A DNA stretch of 64,000 bases. Source: Vermamoeba vermiformis (lineage: Eukaryota). Both the position numbers and the translations under genes were made by a program. Location: assembly GCA_045837725.1 (NCBI GenBank), contig JBEWZL010000077.1:62001-126000 (forward strand). The letters run 5' to 3'. Shown one piece after another: positions 3,301 through 58,921 of this stretch (position 1 is its first letter; each line of letters begins with the position of its first letter). The notes beneath the pieces are model-generated. The model did no database searches. It was given only the letters and a program-made list of their open reading frames with translations, and was not told the DNA's origin.

Positions 3301-4292
3301 CTCTTTTTTCATGAATTGCGTCACTTCAGGAACTACTCCCTGATTAATTAAGAAGTCTTCGAGATCGATTTTCTTGCCAGAATTGACGAGATTCTCTAAC
3401 CTAATAAGGAAATCGTAAATTAATACTTCGATCTGGATGCGAGCTGACACTTACTCAAACGCGTTGCAGAAGTACTTAATCTTTACAGCAGGCTCTTCGT
3501 GCTCCATTACTTTCATAGCATGAGCTTCTATTTTAAGAAGTGACGAATTAACGGCGTCGCTTTCAAGCATCTGTTGATCCGGCAATGATTTAATCAACTC
3601 CGCGAGAAATACATCCATTTGCCTCTTGGTATTCGTACTATCGTATACTTTACCACTATCATGGCAGTAAAACGATTTACCGTCGAATTTCTTCGATGCA
3701 TCAAAATTCAAAAATTCGACCTGTAGATCTTGCTTATTAAACTGCTTTAGTTTATACAACCATTTACGTACGTCATAACCCTCGAAATTGCCTGCTGCTC
3801 TCTCGTGGGCACCTGTCTTGGAAACGCGAAACAACAGTTCATCGCCAGGCAAAAAGTGCTGATTGAACTTCCGGCACATCGTTCTTAGTTTATCTTTTTT
3901 TACTATAAAAGTAATTAAAAAATAAATTATCGTTCCTTTAGTAATGCAGATGTCGTTTTTGTAGTCTGAGATCGGTTGAATGAAAATTAAAGAAAATATT
4001 ACATACTGTCTGTATCGAAGAATAGCTCGGAATACCAATTAGCTTCATAATTATCAATGCCAATCAGAGTCCAATTTAAAGAAGCAGATGCGCAATCCCA
4101 CCAGTATTTACAGACTTCACTGCACTTCAGCTTATCATTATAAGGCAAATTTTCAAAAACTTCCAGCATAATCTCTTTGGGCAAGACAAGGTTAACGAAA
4201 GCGGTGTGATCGGAGTCGATCTTCCGTTTCTTATTGGGCTGATGAATCGCTGGCGATTCTAAGGGTCTCTTTTTTGATGCAGTGCTCATCAT
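387..4292 (-). CDS. F-box + SNF2-family (Rad5/16-like) helicase/ATPase, multi-exon, paralog 1
   Basis: N-terminal F-box LPKEIMLEVFENLPYNDKLKCSEVCKYW; motif I GGVLADAVGLGKT; Ia VVCPNHLAQQW; II VVVDEAHE; III WYVSATPF; helicase-C AASGTNLIEANYVVLLDP and QALGRAHRQGQ; GT-AG introns join the ORF pieces. Confidence 0.9.
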
Positions 4293-22533: not shown

Positions 22534-25512
22534 ATGGCTGACGTGGTAAGTGCCAAAGTTAAAAGTAATCAATGATTTGGTATCAATCAACTTGTTTATC
22601 ATTTTAAAGTATTTATTTGATTTTATACAGCGTGTAAAATGTAAAATATCACTAATTTTGATTTTTCTAAGGCTACGGGCAATTTCTCCAACGAGCCTAT
22701 CACTCTCAATCTCTCTCTAGAAGCCTCGCTCATCAATAAGATAGAAATTCAAGAGCATATTGCGCGTGAAGTTAAAGATTTATTTAAAGACCGACCTTCA
22801 TTCGACCCGATCGAATCTACAGTAAGATGCGAGCCCGGCCGTGCTTTCGTTCACAGCAATTACATGCACTACCTTACCATGGCATGGAACAACCATTTGT
22901 CAGTCGTAATATCGCCAGATATAGTATTTTACACGATTCTGTGCGAAATTGCTTCGAGCGTCAAAGCAGATCCTGAAACGCATCGGCACCTGTTTACTAC
23001 AAGCACCGAAAAGATTGAAATTATGACAATCACTCATGCGCCTCACGTCATTGACTTGAATCAGATCATTAACGGTAAGCATCACCAAGATTTGCGATTT
23101 AGATCAGAACCGAACTTTCCAGTTCTGCCATGCCATCCAGCAGCTTTGTAAATTTATTCGTATTCGCGGTACAATCGTGCTATTAATTCTCTAGCTTGTT
23201 TATTTTATATTACCAGAAGCAGATCTGGCTCTGACATATCAGTGATTTAGGCATTGCTCAGCACTCCCCGATCGATTCGAGCCTGTTCACGGCGGAGTTT
23301 ACCTCAACGACCCTCGAATCACGTCTCGCACTGCAAGCTGCGTTCTGCGACGCCATGTCACCGTACTTCCACTACTCGCGCACTGCTTGTGGCATTCCTC
23401 GCATTAAAGTCCTCGGCACGAAACAAGACTGGCAAACTTTGCAACGAAAAGTTCATTCGCTCGCTACAGAGGTCTTTGCACAAGATATTTCGACGGAAAA
23501 ATCGCTCTCGACCTACCTGAACCGCGCAGAAACAGTCATTGCTAAAATTCACTCGTCACGTGATCCGAAGTTCTGGGAGAATATGTTCGCTATTAGCGGA
23601 TGTTATTCGGGCCACACTGACATGGTGATTGGCTGGATCACGTTGTTGTACAGAAATGGAAGCGGTGTACTCGAGGGCGGAAGATGTTCCGGCGATGATT
23701 ACTACAACTACGAATCACACATTTCCACTGTTAGTTGGAAGTGCAAAGATACCTCAAAAGAATTCGAACTGCGGACTGGATTGCTATATTCGGTAATCAA
23801 CGATCACGGTCAAGAAGAATTGGACAAGAAATTCCCGTGGTTTGAGCCGCAATTCGGTCACGTGGTCTTGGACAAGAACTTCAAAATGACAGCGGAACAA
23901 TTCCAAGAGTACATTGACACCGTGCTCAAGGGTGCGGACAAAAGATTGTGGCAAACTTTCTTTGAGTTGCTGAAAGATGATCCTGTGATGATGGATAAAG
24001 GCCCTGGCGAACTCAAGCAACGATTAAACATTGCGCGGAGACAGATGGATGTTTGGAAAAAGAACAGCAAAGACTTGGAGTTGGCCGAACTAGATCTGGA
24101 GAACAGTGATTTTGGGTCGTTGATTTACATGCACACTGAAGATGGAGACAAGCACGTGATCGAGAAGTTCATCGACGATCTCGTAGAATTTTTGCAAACA
24201 ATGAAGATACGCAAAGTAGTGATGGCACAAAGTGGTGTTTGCGCCGGTGAAATCGCCGAAGGACGATTGTTGCGAGCACTGATCGGCAATGAAGTATTAG
24301 AAGAATTAACAGCTTCGTGCTATGCTTGTGAGGACGAATATAGCGCCATGAATGTCGTGTGCGAGGTGCTGACACATCCAAAGTGTCGGATCAGAACGCT
24401 CAATGTAACTGGCCCGCGATTGAAGGCAGCTGATATGGTCTTATTAGGAAATGCATTAATGAATTCAACTGCGCCAATTGAGCATTTTGCCGTGACCAGC
24501 GCGGATGTGATGGAGTTGGCGGATGCGATCTACCTGTTTTCGACGAAAAAGAATTTGAAGACATTTTCGATTACGTATCCATTTACAAGCTTCTACGGTG
24601 AAAATTCTATGAAAGAAATTGAAATTTCGAAGCGAATTTATTACGCTATCAGAGATTCACGAACGTTAGAGGAGGTCAAAGTTTGTCCGTTTGGAGATTT
24701 GGTCGATAGCTCGTACAAAAAACAACCGATAGATGTTAGCGACTTATTTGAAGACATTGCAGCTAACTTGAAGTTGAATACCAATTTAAAGGCATTGACA
24801 ATCGAAAAGTGGCAGTACGACGACGAATTATTGACGGACCTCGTGTCAGTGCCCTCTTTAAGAAAAATCACTTTCCAAGAATGTCCGGACGCCATTTCAC
24901 TCGATTTTTTGGATGTAACGAAGAACTTGGAGTCATTTACTGGAAGTTTTGACTTCACCGCAGAAATGGTCGCAAAGCTATCAAGCTGTTTATCCGATCC
25001 AGCGTGCAAGATACGCGAGTTGAAGATAATGGGATCTAATTTTGCGAGTGAAGAAGAAGATAAGTTACTGACGACCCTTACGAAGAGTTTTATCGATAAC
25101 AAGTCCTTGACCTCGTTGAAACTTAGTTCACTGAAGTACGACGATGCTGACCGATCTTTTCTCGACAACATTGTTGAAGCCATTAAGAACGGCATGCCGC
25201 TGCAAGACTTGGACATTGATTATTTTTCTAAGAATCCTGAAGACCTGGAGAAGTTACTGGCTGGACTGACGCACTGCAGAACCCTTCGTCAATTCAAGAG
25301 TGATCTGTCGGTGGTTAGCGAGGCAGGATTTAACGCTGTACTGCAGATCGTGCAGCACAATACGTTCGTTGGAGAGCTTTGAAGCGAACTATTATGGTTG
25401 GGATGAGGGTGATCGTCTTACACTGACCAATGAACAACAAAGTACTCTGCTCAAAGCGGCAAAGGCATTGCCATTCGTGCATAAATTTGGAATTAATGGT
25501 GTTAATTTGTAA
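22534..25512 (+). CDS. DUF4419 domain + RNI-like leucine-rich-repeat protein (apparent 1-bp frameshift near 25365)
   Basis: AWNNHLSVVISPDIVFYTIL and MSPYFHY...CGIPRIKVLGTKQDW match DUF4419. The C-terminal half has LxxLxL/NxSLxxL repeats, and its tail continues in another frame to 25512. Confidence 0.7.
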
Positions 25513-36983: not shown

Positions 36984-39900
36984 TTAATGAGCAGCAATAT
37001 GAACAGCGTTGTTAATTTGAGTAGTCTTGCAAGCCAGCGATTCATAAATCAGCTTGGTGAAGATCACCTTGGCTTCCTCTTCGTTTGCATCCAAGCTGAA
37101 GGCTTCGCGCAAGTACTCAATGTCTTCGCCAGAACGAAGTTCAGGAATACCGGTAGACAACATCTAATGAATGACAACCATTAGTTAGCAACTAGGAATG
37201 TTAAATAATCGTCACGTTAACTCACCATAGCAAACAAGTTGATAAAGATCGAGGCGTTCTTACGCAGAATGTTGTAAGCAGTGCAGCACAAGTTGACGTA
37301 GGTCATAAAGTCAGGCGAGTCTTTACCACCCATCACGTAGGCAAAGTCAGGAGTGAACACGAAAGGTGCACGTTCTCTCTTGATACCGAACTTCTTCTTG
37401 TAGTTGCCCAAGAAGTGACCGAAGTCGATGTGAAACAAACGACCGTCTTTGGTGACCATAATGTTGTCGTTGTGTCTGTCACCAATACCGAGCACGTATG
37501 TTGCGACGGAATAACCGGCACAAGATTTAATAAAGCGCTGAAGTGCTTCACGGTGATCGGGTTTGGATGCGTTGTTCGTCTGCAACCACTTGGCGAGAGG
37601 AGTTTCTTTGAAGGCAGCAGTGACACCTCCGTCGGCCTTGGTAATAGCGGCAGTAGTCTGAGCGTTGAGCACAACCTCAATCATGCCGACATCACAGCCA
37701 GTAGCCAAACATCCGTAAGGACTCATTTGTAAGTCGTAACCTTCGCGCTTCCACAACTTGTCCATAATACGGATCATTTGAAGAGTTAACATGTCTTGAC
37801 GCAAGTCATCTCCGGATTTGAAAATGACGTACGGATCAGCTCCCTTGGTGTCGGCATTCTTGAACACCAACCAGAGCGGCAACTTCTTCGAGTCCATATA
37901 CTTGCATTTGTCCACATTAAGACCATTAACCTCCAATCTGGGGTTCAAGGGCAATGCAAGCTTAGTAGGGAAGTTAGCGTTGAGCTTGGTAAGTTCCGTG
38001 CGTAATACGGCAAGACGTTCGCTGTCCTTGTAGTTCTTGATCATGTTGGCGGTGTGGATGAACTTCTTCTGCATCTCATCTTGAGTTTTGAGCTCTTGCA
38101 AATGCGAACCACAGCCACGCAAGTAAGCTTCCATCAACAGGCCGTAGCGCTCGCTAATTTCTCCGACGTGAATTTCAGACTTGAGCAACCAGAAGAACAA
38201 GTGACCGAGGTGACGGTGACGCAAAGCGTGTTGCAATAAGAAGCGTGCCAATGCACTGTCGTGGTACGGTTCGTACTTTAGGACTTGGACCAACTCGAGC
38301 AAGTAATCAGAAATTTCTTCGTTGGTTAACTCTTCAAGGCGCGCCACAGCATACTCTCGAATGCGTTTGTCAGGGAACTTGCTATCCAATAGCTCAAGAG
38401 CATCAAGCGGCGCCATTGGAGCCCATGCGTCCAATAAACGGTAGGACTCTTGCACCGCATTACGATCAGTTTTTGGGACAGACGCCAAGAATTTGGGCAA
38501 ACACTGCAAAAGGAAGTCGAATATTAGTGATGTGATTCAAGGCTTGCACGTGGCACTTACCCTTGGCCAAACTTTGCATTGTTCTCTGTACTTCCAAATC
38601 AATTGTTTATCAGCTGGAGTCATCGGATAGAGTGGATCAGCGTTAGCGATGAACTTTAAGCGCTGCGACTCTTGAGGAGTGATGGCTGAGGGCGCAGGGT
38701 AAGTCTCCACTTGCAATCGCTCGGTAGGGAAAACCACAGTAGAGGCGAAGCGATCGAATTGCACGAACAAAACGGGTGAAGTAGTTTCAGGAGACTGCAC
38801 GCATGTACCGATGGGGTTAGCTTTGTCATCAGGCCACATGTTGAGGCTGACGGGGCCAGTGCGCAACTCGTGCTTGTAGTCGAACAAGTGGCAATTCACC
38901 CAGGCAAGAGGTTGATCTTTCTCAGAGATGACTCCCTCCTTTCTACCAGCCCACAAGGTGAAGCAAATGCGGGTGGAGCGAGGCAAGTCACGCACCTTGA
39001 TGTTCGTCTTGACCCATTCGTACCAACGAGGATTAGGGCAGCAGAAGGCAGTGCCAGTTGCGTGCAGGGTGTCCAACAGCTCGCCACCATGGTACAAGCC
39101 AGCGGTAACGTACAAATACAAGTTGGCTTCATCGCATGAGACTTGCTTTCCAGCAGCAGCAATGAAATTAGCGCTGTGAGGATTGAGGTTCTCCACACCC
39201 AGAATGCGGAATCTGAACGTCTTCATAATGTCCCACGAAGAGAGAACGGAAGGGTTCTCGACGCCACGTTCGATCGTGATCTCTTTGTGGTCGTAGCGGA
39301 TCTCAGGATCAGAAATCAAGAAGGACTCTTCTTCGTTGTCCACTGCGTGTTCAAGCTCGGACTTTGAAGCTTGTGCACCGTCTGCGCCGCCTGAGGGAGC
39401 CTCAACAATGGAGAGATCAGGCTTCTTGCCCTTCTTGATGCACTCTCGAATGTAAGTGAAGTCGGTCACTTTGTACGGTCCGGCAATGTACTCAGCCAAG
39501 CCAGTGGCCTTCATAACAAAGTCCTTGTAGGTCTTGCCAGGGATCACCTTTGCAAGCTTCTTCTGGAAGATTTCTTCTAGGACAGAGTCGGCAGTGGCAT
39601 CCTCTAATTAAGGCGTTAAACACATGGATTCGAAGCTGAACCTGTACGAGGGCCTCGTTTACTTACCGTCCGCAGCGATGGTTTTCTTCATGGACAATTC
39701 ATCCAAACGCAACTCAAGGAAAACCTTTCCAGTGGGGTTTTTGAATGGTGCCTACAGAAGTTAGAAGTCTAATCGATTAAAGAGATTACAATCGCGTACA
39801 TCAGACAAGTGCACTTGAACAGCAGGTCGCTCGGTGTTGAAGCCCTTCTTGGCAATATCTTCTTGCAACTTTTGACGCTCGAAGTAGCGGACACGCGTCA

Positions 39901-52200: not shown

Positions 52201-52311
52201 AAGCATGCAGAGGAGGTACTACCAACTCACTACTTGCTGCATGTTAATGAAGACAAGCTTGCTTCTCTTGGGTACAATTTTGCTCAAGTTATTGCAAATG
52301 TTAGGATCTGA
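49285..52311 (+). CDS. Crinkler/RHS-type effector: SAM header + P-loop NTPase + REase-like C-terminus
   Basis: Exon 49441-49617 NWTCGQVASWLEEQG...LDGYELAQLEEDEL (SAM); Walker A GLSGGGKT; Walker B WFAIDEAQ; LQGRLRY; C-terminal GHAAEQF...PSVHLGPDMIGF. Confidence 0.75.
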
Positions 52312-52756
52312 AGACAATGGTTACAAAACTGACTACACCTCTAAAATTAAATTCTTCTTGTTTTAGTTTTCAATGAATGACTATTCTCACTTGTGCCCTG
52401 CAATGATCCAATTTTCTGTTTATTTGTTGTAGGTTCCTCTGTTTTCGGTTCAAAAGCATGTATGACTATATAAACTTGCTGAATTTTAGGCTTCAATTGA
52501 CTCTTTGGCTTTTGAAATTCACCCCATTAAATTTGTAATTATAGCATGAACTAAGTTGTACACATTAGTAGACTATTCATATATCCTTTAGGAGCATCAG
52601 CCTGATGACACATATCCCTTAAACGGCAGATAGATAAAAGTTCTAAAATTTTATTAGGCAACATTTCATAAACATGTAATCACTATATTTATATATATAA
52701 CAAGGCTTGGCCATATAGGGGCTAGCCCAGTTACGACTATGTTGAACAAAGAATGG

Positions 52757-52980
52757 GTTCTGAGGTGGTAGAAACAAGTTCCACGGCAGTCGAACCAGTT
52801 CCAATGTGGTTGCACCAAGTTCCAAGGCGGTTGATCCTGTTCCGAGGCAGTTGAACCAGTTCCAAGGCAGCTACCAAGTTCCGAGGCTGTTGAACAAGTT
52901 CCGAAGCGGTTGAACAAGTTTCAAGGCAGTCACACAAAATTCCGAGGCAGTTGAACAAAGTTTTGAGGAGGTTGAACCAA
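52757..52980. repeat. Tandem array, ~11 degenerate copies of a 19-21 bp unit (consensus GTTCCGAGGCAGTTGAACAA)
   Basis: Units read directly, e.g. 52839 GTTCCGAGGCAGTTGAACCA, 52878 GTTCCGAGGCTGTTGAACAA, 52898 GTTCCGAAGCGGTTGAACAA. Confidence 0.92.
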
Positions 52981-53290
52981 GTCACAAAGTAAAAATAATT
53001 AAAGTCCAATATCTTGATTGTGCTGGCATGAAGTGAAATTTCATCTAAGTCCAAACTTGCAACTGCACTGGATGCAGTAACACTAAGTTCTACACTTGTG
53101 ACTGGTCAAAAGGATGTGACACAGCAGTCACGAGGAAAATTACCCAAGTCCAACAGTTTTGACCGCGCTGGTCACGAGCAAAACTGCGCTAAGTACAACA
53201 GTCATGACCTCTCTGGTCACAAGTAAAAACTGTCTAAGGACAACAGAGACCTCACTGGCACACGCGAAAATTCATTCAAAGTCCAACATT
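52981..53290. repeat. Degenerate ~45-bp tandem array (AAGTCCAACAG...GACC...CTGGTCACGAG.AAAA)
   Basis: AAGTCCAA-like anchors near 53002, 53047, 53085, 53146, 53191, 53236 and 53279; clearest for the three units from 53146 to 53280. Confidence 0.75.
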
Positions 53291-53431
53291 CGCATTACGA
53301 GATTGGTAGGATTGTGAACGAAAAAAAACACAACCAGCCCTAGCACGTGGTAAGCTTCTATTAACGAATTTTCGTGATTGTAGAAGATATAAATTTGCAC
53401 GCAGCTGCGGTCATTTGTATAATAATCAACG

Positions 53432-53953
53432 ATGGAACGACAACGCTGGACACCCACTAAAATTCACCGCGCAAACACTTACGGGATCTTAGATTCGTAT
53501 GTTAGTGAAGGAAGAAACTTGCGCAGATCTGTGAACGAGCAAAGAGACCATATTTTAGAGCTTTTAAATTCCAGAATAATTTTTGGTCGTGCCCGAAACC
53601 GTTGTGTTCAGATCTTCATGGATAACACAACTTTCGCGAACATGTTTGTCCGTCACCTGGATCTGGCTAGCGTTGGTTGGCGAGTTACAAAAGCAGTTCT
53701 CACCGGCAAAAGACCTCGATTGCAACAGACACACATCAGAAAATGGCTGACAGCACGTCAGGCGCTTCGCATTCTGCACCTTGGTGACGGAGAAATCACA
53801 CGCCGAGATAATGGTAACTTGGATTATTACGCTAAGTTAAAAGATGAAAAAGGACTCGTTTATTTTTCATATTGTATCGATACAAAGTTGCTTACACTTA
53901 GATTTAGCTTTGTATTGTATAGAAAAATTAACGATAATGTATACTATATTTAA
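53432..53953 (+). CDS. Orphan basic 173-aa protein convergent with the transposase
   Basis: Uninterrupted ATG-TAA ORF; its stop overlaps the transposase stop (shared TTAA 53950-53953). No family recognised. Confidence 0.6.
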   Translation: MERQRWTPTKIHRANTYGILDSYVSEGRNLRRSVNEQRDHILELLNSRIIFGRARNRCVQIFMDNTTFANMFVRHLDLASVGWRVTKAVLTGKRPRLQQTHIRKWLTARQALRILHLGDGEITRRDNGNLDYYAKLKDEKGLVYFSYCIDTKLLTLRFSFVLYRKINDNVYYI

Positions 53954-55843
53954 ATTCTATTCGAATTGAATAAAAGCACTTCACTGTCATCACTGTCTTG
54001 CATCTCTTCATCTTCCAAATCATCGTTGATATCAATCACTGCATGCAGTTGTTCAATTTGATTTTGTCTTTGCCGCTGGTATCTTCTTTTCTTTCGCCCT
54101 CTCCTGTTCCTCACTCGGTTTACTATGCCTAACATCTTATGCTTAGTTAATAAGGACTTGCGGCGAAATACATTTCGCATCGTTTGCACCGGAGTTTTCA
54201 CTGCATTTAAGCCGCCGTTGTGATTCGTTCCTGTCCTAAATATTTGCTTATGTAGGCGGTTGGTATGTTCAAAGCCTTGCTGACTCCACTTTCCAATTGA
54301 GCCATGAAGTTCAATTGTTTCGATTGAGTGCTTGCACACAATGTGAACGTACGGTGTTACTCCGTTTGGAAACAAAAACTTCCACGTTGTGAAAAGTAGA
54401 TCACAAGCTTGGGCTAGAATGTGTCTAGAGGCCAGTGACAGGTCTTGCATTTGATTAATTAGCTGATAAGTGGTGGCCCAACTGGTCACTAGCGACAAAA
54501 ACAATGATTTGTCCCCAGTGTAGTTGTTGTATAAGAGAAGCAGGCCAGGAGCTATCGCTTGAGTAGAATGATCAAGGGCCATCAACTTCTTGACGTTGTT
54601 GCCTTGAAGGTACACCTTTAAGGCCCTGTTTGACTTCTCTTTTGGCTTCACAACTCGAATGCCGTAGTTGGTCTTCAATGCGGCCACCAACGGAGGAAAC
54701 GCCACAGTGTTCATTATAGGAGTAGCTACATATTCAATCAACTTTTCTGTTATTCGTAAAGAAGCATGTAGACTGCAGTAGACAAATTGTTTGCGCAAGA
54801 ATGGAAAGCCAGGCAATGTTCGTCTGCAACAATTATCTAACTCGGTCTCCACGTCGGCAATCCTCTCAGAGACAATGTCACAGCAAGGGCAGAACTGATT
54901 GCCGTTAGAGTAGTGTAGTCCCGAAGTAGTCCAGAAGGAGCATAGGTCAATGCAAAAGCCAATCCACAGCTTTACGGATCGCCCACCAATGACTCGATAC
55001 GAGTGGTGCATCTCTGCAATTGTGCGAGTCAATTGATTGACTTGTTGTTTAGCTTCTGATTCTTTCGCTTGGAAGATACCCAAAGGGAATGTTGAGTAAC
55101 CAGATTGATTAGGCAGGCCAGGTAGATTCATAGGCACGATGCCCACCATTACTTCGTCAATGCCACCATTAGCTCGGCCATCGTAGCTTAGCTTGAGTAT
55201 CACATCGTTTGGTATTTCCATTTCGGGAAAGTTACTCGTGTGCAAACGGAATAAATAGTCACCGCACTCGCCCACGACAACGGAGCACGAGGCGAAATTT
55301 CCATCCTCGTGTTTCATGCCCAGCTCTTGCTCAATGTCTTCGTTCAGCTCTTTTCGTATTCTTTTAATATCGTTCAGGCTTGGCATCCTGACGGCAATGT
55401 CCTTTGGGCAAGCACGTCGCCATAGTTGAAACGCAGCATCGGACATGGAGCTCTCTTCCTTGGCTAGTAAGAACTATCTATTGTTAGAACACTCAAGATG
55501 CTTGCAATGAAGTGCTTACTCTTTGTATTCGCTCGTCGTCCATCTCCGGACGTGCCCGCTCATTGTCCATCTCAAAACCAGCGTGCACGTTGCCAACAAC
55601 GTTATTTCCCTGGGCCGCTGGTGTTGCTGGTTGATTACGCTGAATGAGCTCGTGTAATATCCTTGCTAGATCGTTTGCTGAATTCACCAGTGCGTTGCCG
55701 ATCTCCTGATCGGTCAGATTCTGTTGTTGTTTAAAGTCGTGCAGCACCAAATTGAGCGCGTCAACCACTTTGCCATTCTTATAAGACCCTTCTGCAAGGT
55801 CTCCAAGAAGTTTACAAGGTCTGCCCCTTGGTGTGTTATCCAT
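53950..55843 (-). CDS. RAG1/Transib-like DDE transposase (2 exons, ~615 aa)
   Basis: join(55843..55520,55473..53950) is in frame. RGRPCKLL resembles the NBD; LKLSYDG, GFCIDL...FCPCCD, SLHASLR and TPYVHIVCKH...HGSIGKWSQQGFEHTNRLHK parallel RAG1 core motifs. Confidence 0.85.
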
Positions 55844-56053
55844 GATCTGTCAGAAAAAGCGATTAAAATTTAGCCGTAAAAATAATTTTTATACTAGTGG
55901 TTCACTCTATAAAATTGAAATAAATTATATCAACTGTTCTTTATTTAAGTATTTATTCGATGCATATATGGGCTCAATTGCAACTACACTAATGGAAAGA
56001 AATTGGATCACATCTAGTGATCTCCGAAAAATTCACACTACGGTACTAAAATC

Positions 56054-57171
56054 TTACTTGTTTAATGCAGATTGGTGCGCAAAGAGTACCATAGAGTATC
56101 GCTGACCTTCAGTTACTTCTAAGTTCTCGTGCAACAGAGTGGCCGAATTGAATGCGATGAGATCTCCCGGTTCGCATTCAATTTTCAGCTTCAGATCACG
56201 AAAAACAAGCTGTCCTCCTTTGAAATTTCCATAAGGGATCAAGAACGATAATCCCTCCATATGATCATGCCAATCGTAGTGAGCAGAGGCTGTTCCAGCA
56301 TTAACTGCCGCTGTTGGGAAAGCACGCCCGACGAGTCGCATATCTAAGGGCATATTGATTTCTGAGTATGCCTTGTAGAGTGACTTGAAGCTCTTTTGCA
56401 AGTGCATGTTCAGTTTCGTGAACAACTCTCTATTCAGTTTGTTCTTTAAGAAAGTCTCGGAGGCCTCGCTCTTCTTCGTGTCACCCGTGAAAAAAAAGTA
56501 ATCTTGGTAACAACACCAGGCACCAAGGTGTTCTGTCTTCTTTCGCTTCGTCACCCCTCCGCCATTAACGCGTAGCAATCGGCGCGTGCTTGACTCCAGC
56601 GCGTTCAGGTATTTCTTTGCCACTGCGTGCTTCCATACACGCACCTTGACACGCTTTTCATAAGAGAGGCCTTGGTTGTTGTCAAGAAGCACAAAGTTGC
56701 CCTTTACGGCTTTGAGGTTTGCTCTTTGGCTCCGTGTTAGCGGACCAAGTTTTCGACCACGCTGTCGCGGAGGAATCTCCATTGTCATCGTCTCTAGCTC
56801 TGGCTCTTGCTCTTGATTTTGCTTCTTCTGCTTGGTTTTCCAGTAATTACGAGCGTGTGACTCTCGATCAGCCTCTCGATCCACTGCTCTAATAATATTT
56901 AGAAAAAAATAAATATTGACGAAAATTATTCTAAAAATTATATTGCTGTAATATATAGTCGGCTTACTTCTTGGATTTTTTTCTTGGTGGCTTTAAGCGA
57001 GGGATGTGAGTGAGCCCATCCGAGGCCGGCTTCAATTTTGGTTTCTTTGCTTGTGGCTTACGTGTGCTCTGAATTTAATAGTAATTAATTTTGAACTAAC
57101 TCTAAAAACATAATGAGAGCGATTACCTTGCGAGGATCTGACCCCTTCTTTTTCGCCTGTCTCGTGCGCAT
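56054..57171 (-). CDS. TET/JBP-family 2OG-Fe(II) dioxygenase (3 exons, ~326 aa)
   Basis: join(57171..57127,57068..56968,56888..56054) is in frame. Basic N-terminus, then FPTAAVN..SAHYDWHD (HxD), GNFKGGQLVF, PGDLIAF, LLHEN (distal H), QRYSMVLF (RxS). Confidence 0.85.
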
Positions 57172-57444
57172 TCGTGTTGTGGTCTTGCACGTGTTAATTG
57201 CTTCTAGAACGAACACAAAAAGGCAGGTGGTTTGTGTTTTTTACCGTAAAAAAGTACTCCGAATCTTGTAATGAAGATACACAACACTCATATAATGGAA
57301 TATTATAATAAGCAAAAATATTGGGACAAAAATTTGCAGGAACTAGATTCAGAGATTGATCTCAGAAAAGGTGGCATATATTTGACCGTTTTCTACGACG
57401 AAGTCGTCTCTTATTTATACTAGTTATAGTATATATTATATATT

Positions 57445-58921
57445 ATGGCTTCAGCACTATTAGACGCAATACCAGACATCCTTCTCGAATACGCTCAGCA
57501 TTGGAATTTGTTCGATCTGTGCGCGTTACTTCAGACGAACAAAACAATAGCAGCGATGTTGAATGATTTTAAAATAGTAGCCATAATTACTGAGAATTAC
57601 AAGTAAGTGAATAGCGGTTTTGTTGAACAGAAATTAATTATTAGCCGTGAGCTGTTTCTTAAAAAGGCAGACGAACGTATTCTCAAATTCTTAAGCTATA
57701 AAGCCAAGGTAAATAAGATAGATCATTTATTTGGCACTATTTAATTAATTTTTCTTTTTAATACTAGATGGCAGCAAAACAAAATGACGCCGAGGCAATC
57801 AACTTCGTATTAGAGCAGTACAGTCGATATTTCAAGAATCATACATTACATTACTTAGGACCCATGGTTCTGCCTGCTATTTTTCAATACGATGCAGATT
57901 TGGCTTTGGAGTGCATTTGGAATGTAAGGAAAGCTTAAATCATCACTCATTCTAACGTTTATATACAGCATTATAGTATATCTAAGTCGGCGAGCGAGAC
58001 CGATTCAGATCTATTGCCTTTCCTTGCCAAGTTCACGATCCACCCGTGTTACGTGTTGGGATCGAACATTACTTTCAGCAAGATCTCAAAAACGTTTGAA
58101 TTTGTCTTACGAAAATGTAATGAGCACTTCGACAATATAATTGCTAATATTGTGCGCGATGCAATGGGCGGTCGAGAAAATCAGCGTCGAGTAAGATCTG
58201 AGCTGCTATACCAGCTACTATACTCTACTTAATGATTAATTTGACAATATTATTTAGAATGCACCTATCGATAATATTACTCTGTTTCGTGCTGTAATGC
58301 ATTGCCGGAGAATCTTCCCTGAATACTTCTCATTCGACATAAACAGAAGAATGGACACACTCCAAGTACGTAAAAAACATTATTTATAGCTAGTTTTATA
58401 TCTAATAATGAATAGAATGTATCACCATTAGAAAAGGCAGCTCAACTGCACAACCGAGAATTATTCGAATTATTCTTAGAACACGGCGCTGCGATTGATA
58501 ACGAGAATGTTAGGTATTGTAAGCTTGCTTATGATAATTTCTACAAGTGGGTTGGTCCATTTGTTCAATACATGATTAAAAGAGGTGTTGGTACGTTTTA
58601 TTTCCTAAAAAGGAAATTGACACGACTTAACTTTTGTTTGTTTTAGATGTGAATGCAGATTATAATGAACATAGTCTTTTATATTTTTATATTAGTCAAT
58701 ATGATGACCCTGATGATGTCTAGTAAGCTACCATAGAAAAGATCTTTTTCCCAGGATCTGCAGTAACTTTTTGTTGCAGCATTATTGAATTCATTAAAGA
58801 AAATACTAGAAAAACTTATTTAACATTTGAGCCACTCCATGATTTTGTAGGCAACATAACCATTCACCCAAAAGGAAAAGCAGAACAACTGAATTCTGTT
58901 CCACGTAAGTTTTCAACATAG
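57445..58921 (+). CDS. F-box-like + ankyrin-repeat protein
   Basis: MASALLDAIPDILLEYAQHWNLFDLCALLQTNK is F-box-like; SPLEKAAQLHNRELFELFLEHGAAID is an ankyrin repeat. Many short exons. Confidence 0.6.

Follow-up and report, generated by a model that had tools for sequence, protein, structure and literature searches.

On the minus strand of contig JBEWZL010000077.1 (assembly GCA_045837725.1, filed under Vermamoeba vermiformis), at 53950..55843 of the 64,000-nucleotide stretch analyzed here (the window; position 1 is its first letter), lies a gene that we read, with a probability of roughly 0.8, as expressed, correctly spliced and coding for a full-length DDE transposase of the structural type of RAG1 and Transib. 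On this reading it is part of a large eukaryotic lineage, for the most part without annotation, that stands about equidistant from RAG1, amphioxus RAG1L and insect Transib within the CACTA-Mirage-Chapaev-Transib (CMCT) clade. This reading is carried by a spliced transcript-like contig, by a predicted fold that matches RAG1 from one end of the core to the other, and by a family profile that recovers RAG1, RAG1L and Transib ahead of every unrelated protein of known structure.

A two-exon gene that is transcribed and spliced

The gene is divided in the open reading frame (ORF) listing between two minus-strand frames, 55493-55849 and 53950-55473. The earliest in-frame ATG past the stop codon at 55850-55852 is the one at 55843-55841, and once 55474-55519 is removed the frames (324 nt and 1524 nt) run on in phase as a protein of 615 amino acids. 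Exon 1 (55520..55843, minus strand) comprises 108 codons, the 46-nt intron (55474..55519, minus strand, phase 0) reads GTAAGC...CTAAC...TAG, and exon 2 (53950..55473, minus strand; 507 codons plus stop) contains the whole RAG1/Transib-like core, with a junction that reads ...DDERIQR/FLLAKEE. Both the gene coordinates and the intron had been called exactly by the first-pass annotation, which was made from the sequence alone.

Expression of the spliced form was evident in X3, a set available as contigs only, labelled 'RNA?' (a guess) and derived from a near relative of the window's strain (6 differences over 1880 nt). An X3 contig of 1880 nt (depth 7.45) maps to 53916-55473 and 55520-55841, skipping precisely the 46 nt of the intron, and the CT..AC ends of the skipped segment on the plus strand correspond to GT..AG on the gene strand. 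A contig from the DNA run X1, covering 54723-56457, keeps the intron unspliced. As X3 depth is nil in the intergenic bins 55864-56171 and 56942-57249, and as X3 contains another GT..AG joint near the transposase gene, X3 behaves as RNA. The transposase gene is therefore transcribed and spliced, which answers the RNA check of the splice that had been proposed for it. Because the spliced contig ends 2 nt short of the ATG, we infer the 5' end of the gene and the use of this start codon.

The X3 strain differs from the window by four synonymous and two non-synonymous substitutions in the transposase, which are too few for a selection test, and by two synonymous and one non-synonymous substitution in the adjoining TET/JBP gene described below. 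In addition, two relatives of the protein with 31-35% identity (P0002 and P0003) begin at the same methionine as the ORF-called exon 2 product, which hints, on sequence comparison, that the intron position may be shared with relatives.

The predicted fold matches RAG1 across the core

AlphaFold2 modeled exon 2 from a 42-sequence alignment with a predicted local distance difference test score (pLDDT) of 88.1 and a predicted TM-score (pTM) of 0.85. Key residues are given here in exon 2 numbering, to which 108 is added for the full-length protein (D98, D176 and E402 are D206, D284 and E510). D98 is placed in the first long strand (90-102), D176 just past the fourth strand (165-173) and E402 in the helix at 399-415; in the model these positions fit an RNase H-like DDE fold, in which the three residues would be expected to cluster in space.

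A Foldseek search of the PDB with this model returned 49 matches at E<=1e-3, and among the matches listed all were RAG1, BbRAGL or HzTransib. The best match had an E-value of 4.8e-13 with a TM-score of about 0.6, and the P element followed at rank 50 with an E-value of 1.4e-3. Alignment against 48,161 representative chains with VIA-align placed RAG1 first (Z 22.1, root-mean-square deviation 3.5, 412-417 aligned residues, model residues 1-447 against mouse RAG1 467-1005) and BbRAG1L next (Z 21.8; 412-419 aligned residues over the RAG1 and BbRAG1L matches), followed by HzTransib (Z 15.4), the P element (Z 12.9), ISCth4 (Z 9.4), Hermes (Z 8.3) and Tn5 (Z 7.4). The match to RAG1 extends from the equivalent of the DDBD through the pre-RNase H, RNase H and zinc-binding parts to the C-terminal domain.

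The first-pass annotation had suggested comparing a model with RAG1 and HzTransib, and the fold matches both. It had also named the P element and the CACTA side as families that structure or profile searches might favor instead. The P element falls behind RAG1 in both structure searches, and the Pfam models of CACTA (CACTA/EnSpm), Plavaka and KDZ found no match in the query at E<=1. Structures of the CACTA-Mirage-Chapaev (CMC) type are absent from the PDB fold matches of both Foldseek and VIA-align, and for this reason the fold search cannot tell Transib from CMC.

Sequence homology and conserved residues

Exon 2 is laid out from the DDBD equivalent through the C-terminal domain, followed by a basic tail and then an acidic tail. 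Pfam RAG1 (PF12940) matched it with 29.9 bits (cut-off 25; E 2.1e-7) and was the sole family at E<=1; this match spans profile positions 537-596 of 653 only, which is the H..H...E segment. With the single sequence, phmmer against the PDB gave 16 matches, 15 of them to RAG1, with a best E-value of 1.9e-5. A HMMER scan of 1.84 billion representatives yielded 205 clusters at E<=1e-3, 33 at E<=1e-10 and 3 at E<=1e-30, the query itself included.

A profile of 42 aligned members reached considerably further. Searched against the PDB, it matched zebrafish RAG1 with an E-value of 8.6e-16 over about 340 positions, amphioxus BbRAG1L with 3.1e-11, and HzTransib with 5.2e-9 over nearly the whole chain (profile 76-520 against chain residues 6-439), and the best unrelated match after RAG1, RAG1L and Transib had an E-value of only 0.078. 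Among the 42 members D176, C195, C198, H236, Y375, H377, H382 and E402 are invariant, and at D98, E138, C233, L235, R240 and G291 conservation is at least 90%. The alignment of the profile to zebrafish RAG1 pairs vaDLk with GYDEK, CpfCd with CTLCD, LHaklR with LHCDIG, tpYiHilvkH with TNYLHKTLAH, and SqQGfEashK with ASEGNESGNK.

These results sort the motif series that had first been listed as parallel to RAG1. The second aspartate, the C-x2-C pair, the LH motif, the H-x4-H pair and the glutamate are aligned to RAG1. Three further parallels are not part of that significant alignment: LSCSQYHKMYR was seen solely in a non-significant first domain (i-Evalue 7.2), KLSYDG, proposed as the counterpart of D600, lies beyond its range, and the pairing of GRP with GGRPR was recovered by none of the alignments. 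The assignment of D98 draws on its conservation in at least 90% of the 42 members, on its place in the first RNase H-like strand and on the range of the structural alignment. The D-D-E triad, the zinc ligands of the C-x2-C and H-x4-H pairs and the conserved histidine H236 are intact, as had been claimed for the catalytic and zinc-binding residues, and the motif resemblance to RAG1 is far beyond chance. The broader claim that the gene preserves a RAG1 core holds as homology to the RAG1/Transib catalytic core over the whole length. It does not hold as membership of the RAG1 branch, since the D/D/E plus 2C/3H motif set is described as common to the whole CMCT clade (PMC12730594), so that the motif list alone does not put the gene on the RAG1 line.

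The relatives of the protein are themselves sparsely annotated. Pfam RAG1 is their commonest match and a weak one, found in 8 of 48 relatives and 15 of a further 101 (23 of 149 with even a weak match). Models of CACTA, Plavaka and KDZ matched none of the 48 at E<=0.01 and are not among the 25 families listed for the further 101. One relative, P0058, carries a C-terminal Ulp1 protease domain. DUF1280 gave a weak match before the catalytic core in 3 of the 149 relatives (P0019 and two of the 101) and in the Atlas cluster at rank 8, matches that could tie an uncharacterized Pfam family to this transposase lineage. A protein language-model look-up (Atlas) returned RAG1 clusters together with unnamed clusters from rotifers, arthropods and Mucoromycota, and word-index protein searches with the transposase returned its own product only.

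Exon 1 occupies the place of the nonamer-binding domain

Exon 1 begins with an AT-hook-like P-R-G-R-P at residues 5-9 (RGRP at 6-9) and is predicted by AlphaFold2 to form helices at 8-22, 25-41 and 45-69 that lead into a disordered linker; the single-sequence model scores a pLDDT of 67 overall and 74-93 over residues 20-70. When the core is aligned by structure with mouse RAG1, the alignment opens at exon 2 residue 1 against RAG1 residue 467. The RAG1 nonamer-binding domain (NBD), which we take to be residues 389-464, presumably has the same layout as exon 1, with a GRP motif and then three helices. As the alignment starts just past the NBD, the intron lies at the NBD/DDBD boundary and exon 1 stands in the NBD's place.

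Homology was sought by several routes. Comparison of exon 1 with the family by hhalign gave a probability of 0.33 and no homologue; phmmer with filters off against the N-termini of 25 relatives gave nothing below E 0.18; phmmer against the PDB did not find RAG1; Foldseek with the exon 1 model gave 0 PDB matches at E<=10; and the wide VIA search with the model gave a best Z of 5.1, to generic helical proteins, with RAG1 absent from the rows. A GRP motif is found in 2 of the 25 relatives with N-terminal extensions, in both cases about 90-105 residues ahead of the core, as here. An AT-hook is a common and easily gained motif. GRP-bearing NBD equivalents have been reported in both Transib subgroups (Tao et al. 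2022, PMC9435367), and an NBD-GRPR/K in RAGL-A is discussed by Martin et al. 2023 (PMC10462144). We read exon 1 as NBD-like in position and in its predicted helical architecture, and as no more than a candidate homologue of the NBD. For the NBD-like exon of the first-pass annotation, then, position and helix count agree, and detectable similarity to the RAG1 NBD or to the relatives' N-termini was not found.

Neighboring genes

The gene upstream of the transposase on the same strand (56054..56788, minus strand, 244 aa) encodes a TET/JBP-type 2-oxoglutarate/Fe(II) dioxygenase, and its stop codon lies 210 nt ahead of the transposase ATG. Pfam Tet_JBP matched it with 40 bits (cut-off 34.9) over profile positions 2-164 of 164, and a PDB search matched the Naegleria Tet-like dioxygenase (E 3.9e-4) and also CcTet. 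The alignment to Naegleria Tet pairs LLHEN...GQRYS with YKHVV...GWRIG, and the sequence contains an H-x-D (HYD). We take HYD and the distal histidine and arginine to have the roles of the corresponding residues in such enzymes. X3 contigs cover the gene at 56288-56438, 56502-56652 and 56720-56870 at low depth (2-2.7). This gene went unmentioned in the earlier annotation. The TET protein (56788-56740) and the transposase (55843-55800) both start with a basic R-G-R followed by L-G-(P/D)-L (PPRQRGRKLGPL and TPRGRPCKLLGDL), which may be a nuclear-import or DNA-binding signal, or coincidence.

DNA transposons that carry TET/JBP, including the RAG1-like ESTA, have been described in three fungal lineages in a survey confined to fungi (PMC12730594). 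In the literature searched, a set that leaves subscription journals and supplements to one side, no Transib or RAG1-like transposase was linked to TET/JBP outside fungi. The TET/JBP gene here is probably part of the same unit as the transposase.

On the other side, an orphan ORF (53432..53953, plus strand, 173 aa) stands tail to tail with the transposase, and the overlapping stop codons of the two genes form the palindrome ATTTAAAT. An X3 contig covers 53437-53855 at a depth of 34, the highest of the three genes. Neither Pfam nor the Atlas gave a match for the orphan ORF, and a set of 5.8 billion sequences returned only itself and the protein of one metagenome contig. That contig, L001, was the one related locus found in the search, with none in prokaryote genomes and none in viral contigs. 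In L001 the relative of the orphan ORF (3855-4229, minus strand; tblastn E 2.5e-27, 45% identity) is intact, lacks a 52-residue stretch in the middle, and keeps the same tail-to-tail order beside a transposase relative, of which only residues 247-588 are covered and which is 5'-truncated and split over three frames. There is no TET gene in L001, and its outer flanks share nothing with the window. A predicted complex of the transposase core with the orphan ORF scored 0.00 with the partner's fold uncertain, which says nothing either way about binding. A low-copy element and a domesticated gene would both fit the conserved pairing with the orphan ORF.

Elsewhere the window encodes a class I PI3K with Ras-binding, C2, helical and kinase domains (37217-39607, minus strand, split over adjacent frames by introns), two DUF4419 frames at 22645-25382 (plus strand), and RasGEF, F-box, leucine-rich repeat and ankyrin proteins. 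The PI3K and DUF4419 frames are ordinary host genes that serve only as a hint to the host lineage. A class I PI3K with a Ras-binding domain is not known from fungi. The host is probably not a fungus.

Element ends, copy number and the points that weigh against the reading

A number of observations count against the placement and the mobility implied by a RAG1/Transib-type transposase. Structure-based identity is 12-16% by Foldseek and VIA-align, against a mean of 26% reported within RAG1L plus Transib (PMC9435367). Single-sequence similarity to RAG1 in the phmmer search of the PDB is limited to residues 324-412, toward the C-terminus, and HzTransib was not matched in that search at E<=10. Three scans for terminal inverted repeats and a target duplication around the transposase unit found nothing above chance, the window holds one copy of the transposase, and word depth in X1 contigs over the gene is 466-566 against 413-780 in the flanks (a depth that is not a copy number). 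The linkage to TET is present at one of the two loci, the window and not L001. From two sets of raw RNA reads that carry the name of the window's organism, 0 reads mapped to the 4.6 kb, a result that counts as no test. Since the single sequence misses HzTransib, identity is this low, and RAG1, RAG1L and Transib score alike with the profile, we take the protein for a RAG1-like lineage of its own, which does not look like a canonical Transib and which would sit close to the base of RAG1/Transib or else on the side of ESTA and CMC.

The search for ends can be described more closely. The best 30-nt inverted match between the plausible left (52300-53950) and right (56990-57500) boundary zones was 18/30, a level reached by 98% of 200 shuffles, and no CAC-type inverted ends resembling recombination signal sequences (RSSs) with a 5-bp duplication stood above shuffled controls in the boundary zones. 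Two repeat pairs, 53912-53931/57745-57764 and 53318-53333/57232-57247, were set aside as AT-rich, not above many others and without duplications. CACTAG words at about 56016 and 55898, compared by eye with CACTTAG at 53894, do not extend. The transposase unit looks like a low-copy or immobilized element, and the first-pass suggestion that it may be active goes further than these findings do.

Tandem arrays lie upstream of the orphan ORF at 52771-52982 (20-bp unit, about 10 copies) and 53127-53246 (45-bp unit, 2.7 copies), and all 8 matches of the 20-bp unit in the window fall inside its array. The arrays may be subterminal element repeats or ordinary minisatellite, and an inverted counterpart was not found on the other side of the unit. 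To the right of the TET gene, 57274-57400 has about twofold depth in X1 (1224 at 57305 against 414-632), and contigs from X1 and X3 each join it leftward to different sequence, with loose ends at 57281 and 57274. This segment is probably a second copy of the 5' part of the neighboring gene. The loose end at 57281 in X1 was considered as an empty site and rejected, its 15-nt consensus having no counterpart near the left side of the unit. The plus-strand ORF in the region of 57371-57645 begins MASALLDAIPDILLEY; the X3 contig over that region has a 42-nt GT..AG intron (plus strand, 57603-57644) and skips a further 146 nt (57372-57517) with non-canonical ends; this skip is less likely to be an intron than an indel that separates copies or strains. 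X1 also contains haplotype contigs, at 53400-53631 (depths 366 and 183, 9 differences) and at 54633-54721 (261 of 730), which suggest that the sequenced culture is heterozygous or carries its alleles in unequal dosage.

Alternative readings

One alternative is that the gene is a domesticated or immobilized transposase, a single-copy host gene that no longer moves, with or without its TET and orphan neighbors. The missing ends, the lack of a second copy in the window and the flank-like depth all agree with this, as do an intact frame that is expressed and spliced and the strain differences of four synonymous to two non-synonymous, although the six substitutions involved are too few to be read as selection. 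The pairing with the orphan ORF, kept in the distant L001 where the orphan is intact and the transposase truncated and broken into three frames, points the same way, but the flanks of the two loci share nothing outside the two genes, which fits a moved unit as well as lost synteny. Moreover, none of the catalytic and zinc residues has been lost, and mobile elements that carry TET have as their signature a TET/JBP gene next to a transposase (PMC12730594). The family extends to at least 205 clusters, for which a conserved host-gene context is not shown. We regard domestication as possible, on the less likely side.

A second alternative, to which we give a similarly limited likelihood, is that the gene is of ESTA, Chapaev or Mirage type, on the CMC side of the clade or in the ESTA lineage, and that it resembles RAG1 because RAG1 and Transib alone in the clade have solved structures and a Pfam core model. 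The clade-wide motif set and the absence of CMC-type structures from the PDB matches leave room for this, and ESTA transposases carry TET/JBP and are tied to RAG1 by HHpred only (PMC12730594). The Ulp1 protease domain at the end of P0058 may be counted on the same side; captures of Ulp1 proteases are usual in CACTA and MULE elements. So may the weak DUF1280 matches in three relatives and one Atlas cluster, DUF1280 being a nematode family with, at most, a putative link to Mirage. What argues for the RAG1/Transib side instead is that the curated Pfam RAG1 threshold is passed, that the fold match is full-length, reaching from the DDBD equivalent through the C-terminal domain and so beyond the RNase H core, and that CACTA and Plavaka models are unmatched in the query, in the 48 relatives and in the 25 families listed for the other 101. 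The host is probably non-fungal, and ESTA is described from rusts (PMC12730594).

It is unlikely that the locus is a true element of the Transib/RAG lineage whose exon 1 is a real NBD homologue, so that it bears on V(D)J ancestry and may act on RSS-like ends. Exon 1 does stand in the NBD position with RGRP followed by three predicted helices, the layout of the NBD, and GRP recurs at similar spacing in two relatives. NBD equivalents that carry GRP are also known from both subgroups of Transib (PMC9435367). Against this, exon 1 has no detectable similarity to RAG1 or to the N-termini of relatives, GRP is lacking in 23 of the 25 relatives with N-terminal extensions, CAC-type ends and a 5-bp duplication were not found, and the family is no nearer to HzTransib than to RAG1, at an identity far under that within RAG1L plus Transib.

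More speculatively, and with little expectation on our part that it is correct in full, the locus could be a three-gene element in a microbial eukaryote outside the fungi, from a deep-branching RAG1-like lineage that has yet to be named, made up of a TET/JBP gene, a transposase whose NBD equivalent (an AT-hook GRP plus three helices) has an exon to itself precisely at the NBD/DDBD boundary, and a small, conserved, convergent partner in the position of RAG2. Were this so, a convergent accessory gene and an end-binding module of GRP type would predate or parallel the RAG1-RAG2 arrangement, and capture of TET by RAG1-like transposons would not be limited to fungi.

That the motifs resemble RAG1 by chance or that the gene is a dead pseudogene, readings for which nothing speaks beyond the lack of element ends, can practically be discarded in view of E-values of 2e-7 to 8.6e-16, a fold Z of 22, an intact frame of 615 codons, a spliced transcript and invariant catalytic residues.

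A possible mechanism

For RAG, BbRAGL and HzTransib, a nick/hairpin mechanism with a 5-bp target duplication has been described (PMC10462144). If the full-length RAG1/Transib-type transposase worked by analogy with RAG and HzTransib, a dimer would bind both element ends and nick one strand at each, and the freed 3'-OH would form a hairpin on the flanking DNA and release the element, which would then integrate with a short target duplication. The C2H2 zinc site would, on the same analogy, brace the catalytic domain, and exon 1, with its RGRP and three predicted helices, would probably add binding to the minor groove of AT-rich DNA. The TET/JBP enzyme could oxidize methylated bases and so allow the unit to escape methylation-based silencing, as is proposed for TET-carrying transposons in fungi (PMC12730594).

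Comparison with known systems

The P element/THAP9 transposase (PDB 6p5a) scores far below RAG1. Its DDE core, too, has the RNase H fold and a large insertion, and the match is partial, with 321 aligned residues; identity is 8%, and the alignment contains no shared zinc motifs.

The ESTA elements (Kojima 2025, PMC12730594), compared here by description only, likewise pair a TET/JBP gene with a transposase whose nearest characterized relative is RAG1, and the D/D/E plus 2C and 3H motifs of the clade are common to them and the protein studied here. ESTA comes from rust fungi and has TA duplications and CA..TG ends, whereas the host here is probably non-fungal and ends were not found.

With Transib, represented by HzTransib (PDB 6pqn and 6pqx), the protein agrees in overall fold (Foldseek E 1.6e-10, TMq 0.60, TMt 0.63). 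As in Transib, the core is compact, at about 450 residues, with no RING or other RAG1 N-terminal region, and no recognized RAG2-like partner is present at the locus. Unlike HzTransib, to which identity is about 12%, the gene has an intron, a separate N-terminal exon and an adjoining TET/JBP gene, and the CAC-type inverted ends and 5-bp duplication were not found at the locus.

The RAG1 core and amphioxus RAG1L (PDB 4wwx, 6dbi, 3jbw and 6b40) are the top matches by every method, and the D/D/E triad, the C-x2-C and H-x4-H pairs and the equivalent of H795 are all present here as in those proteins. Identity to them is 13-16%, and the core is about 90 residues shorter; unlike RAG1, the protein has neither a RING/zinc-finger N-terminal region nor a CCGHC C-terminal tail. 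No RAG2-like kelch gene stands beside the transposase, whose neighbors are the 173-aa ORF (no Pfam family at E<=0.1) and the Tet_JBP gene.

Bacterial, fungal and plant Transibs and a protist RAG-like element have already been published, as have GRP-bearing NBD equivalents (PMC9435367), so the relevance to the ancestry of V(D)J recombination that was first claimed for the gene stands as a modest one. The locus adds a member to a published kind, the RAG1-like CMCT transposases, some of which carry TET/JBP, and by itself leaves the picture of RAG origins unchanged. What it contributes is a cleanly annotated, expressed transposase of RAG1 fold from a lineage that is nearly unannotated in Pfam, and a TET/JBP gene beside a RAG1-like transposase in a probably non-fungal host, next to a published survey that covers fungi only (PMC12730594). 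Set beside these known systems, it can serve to root the RAG1/Transib tree from outside and to test the idea that capture of TET helps DNA transposons evade methylation.

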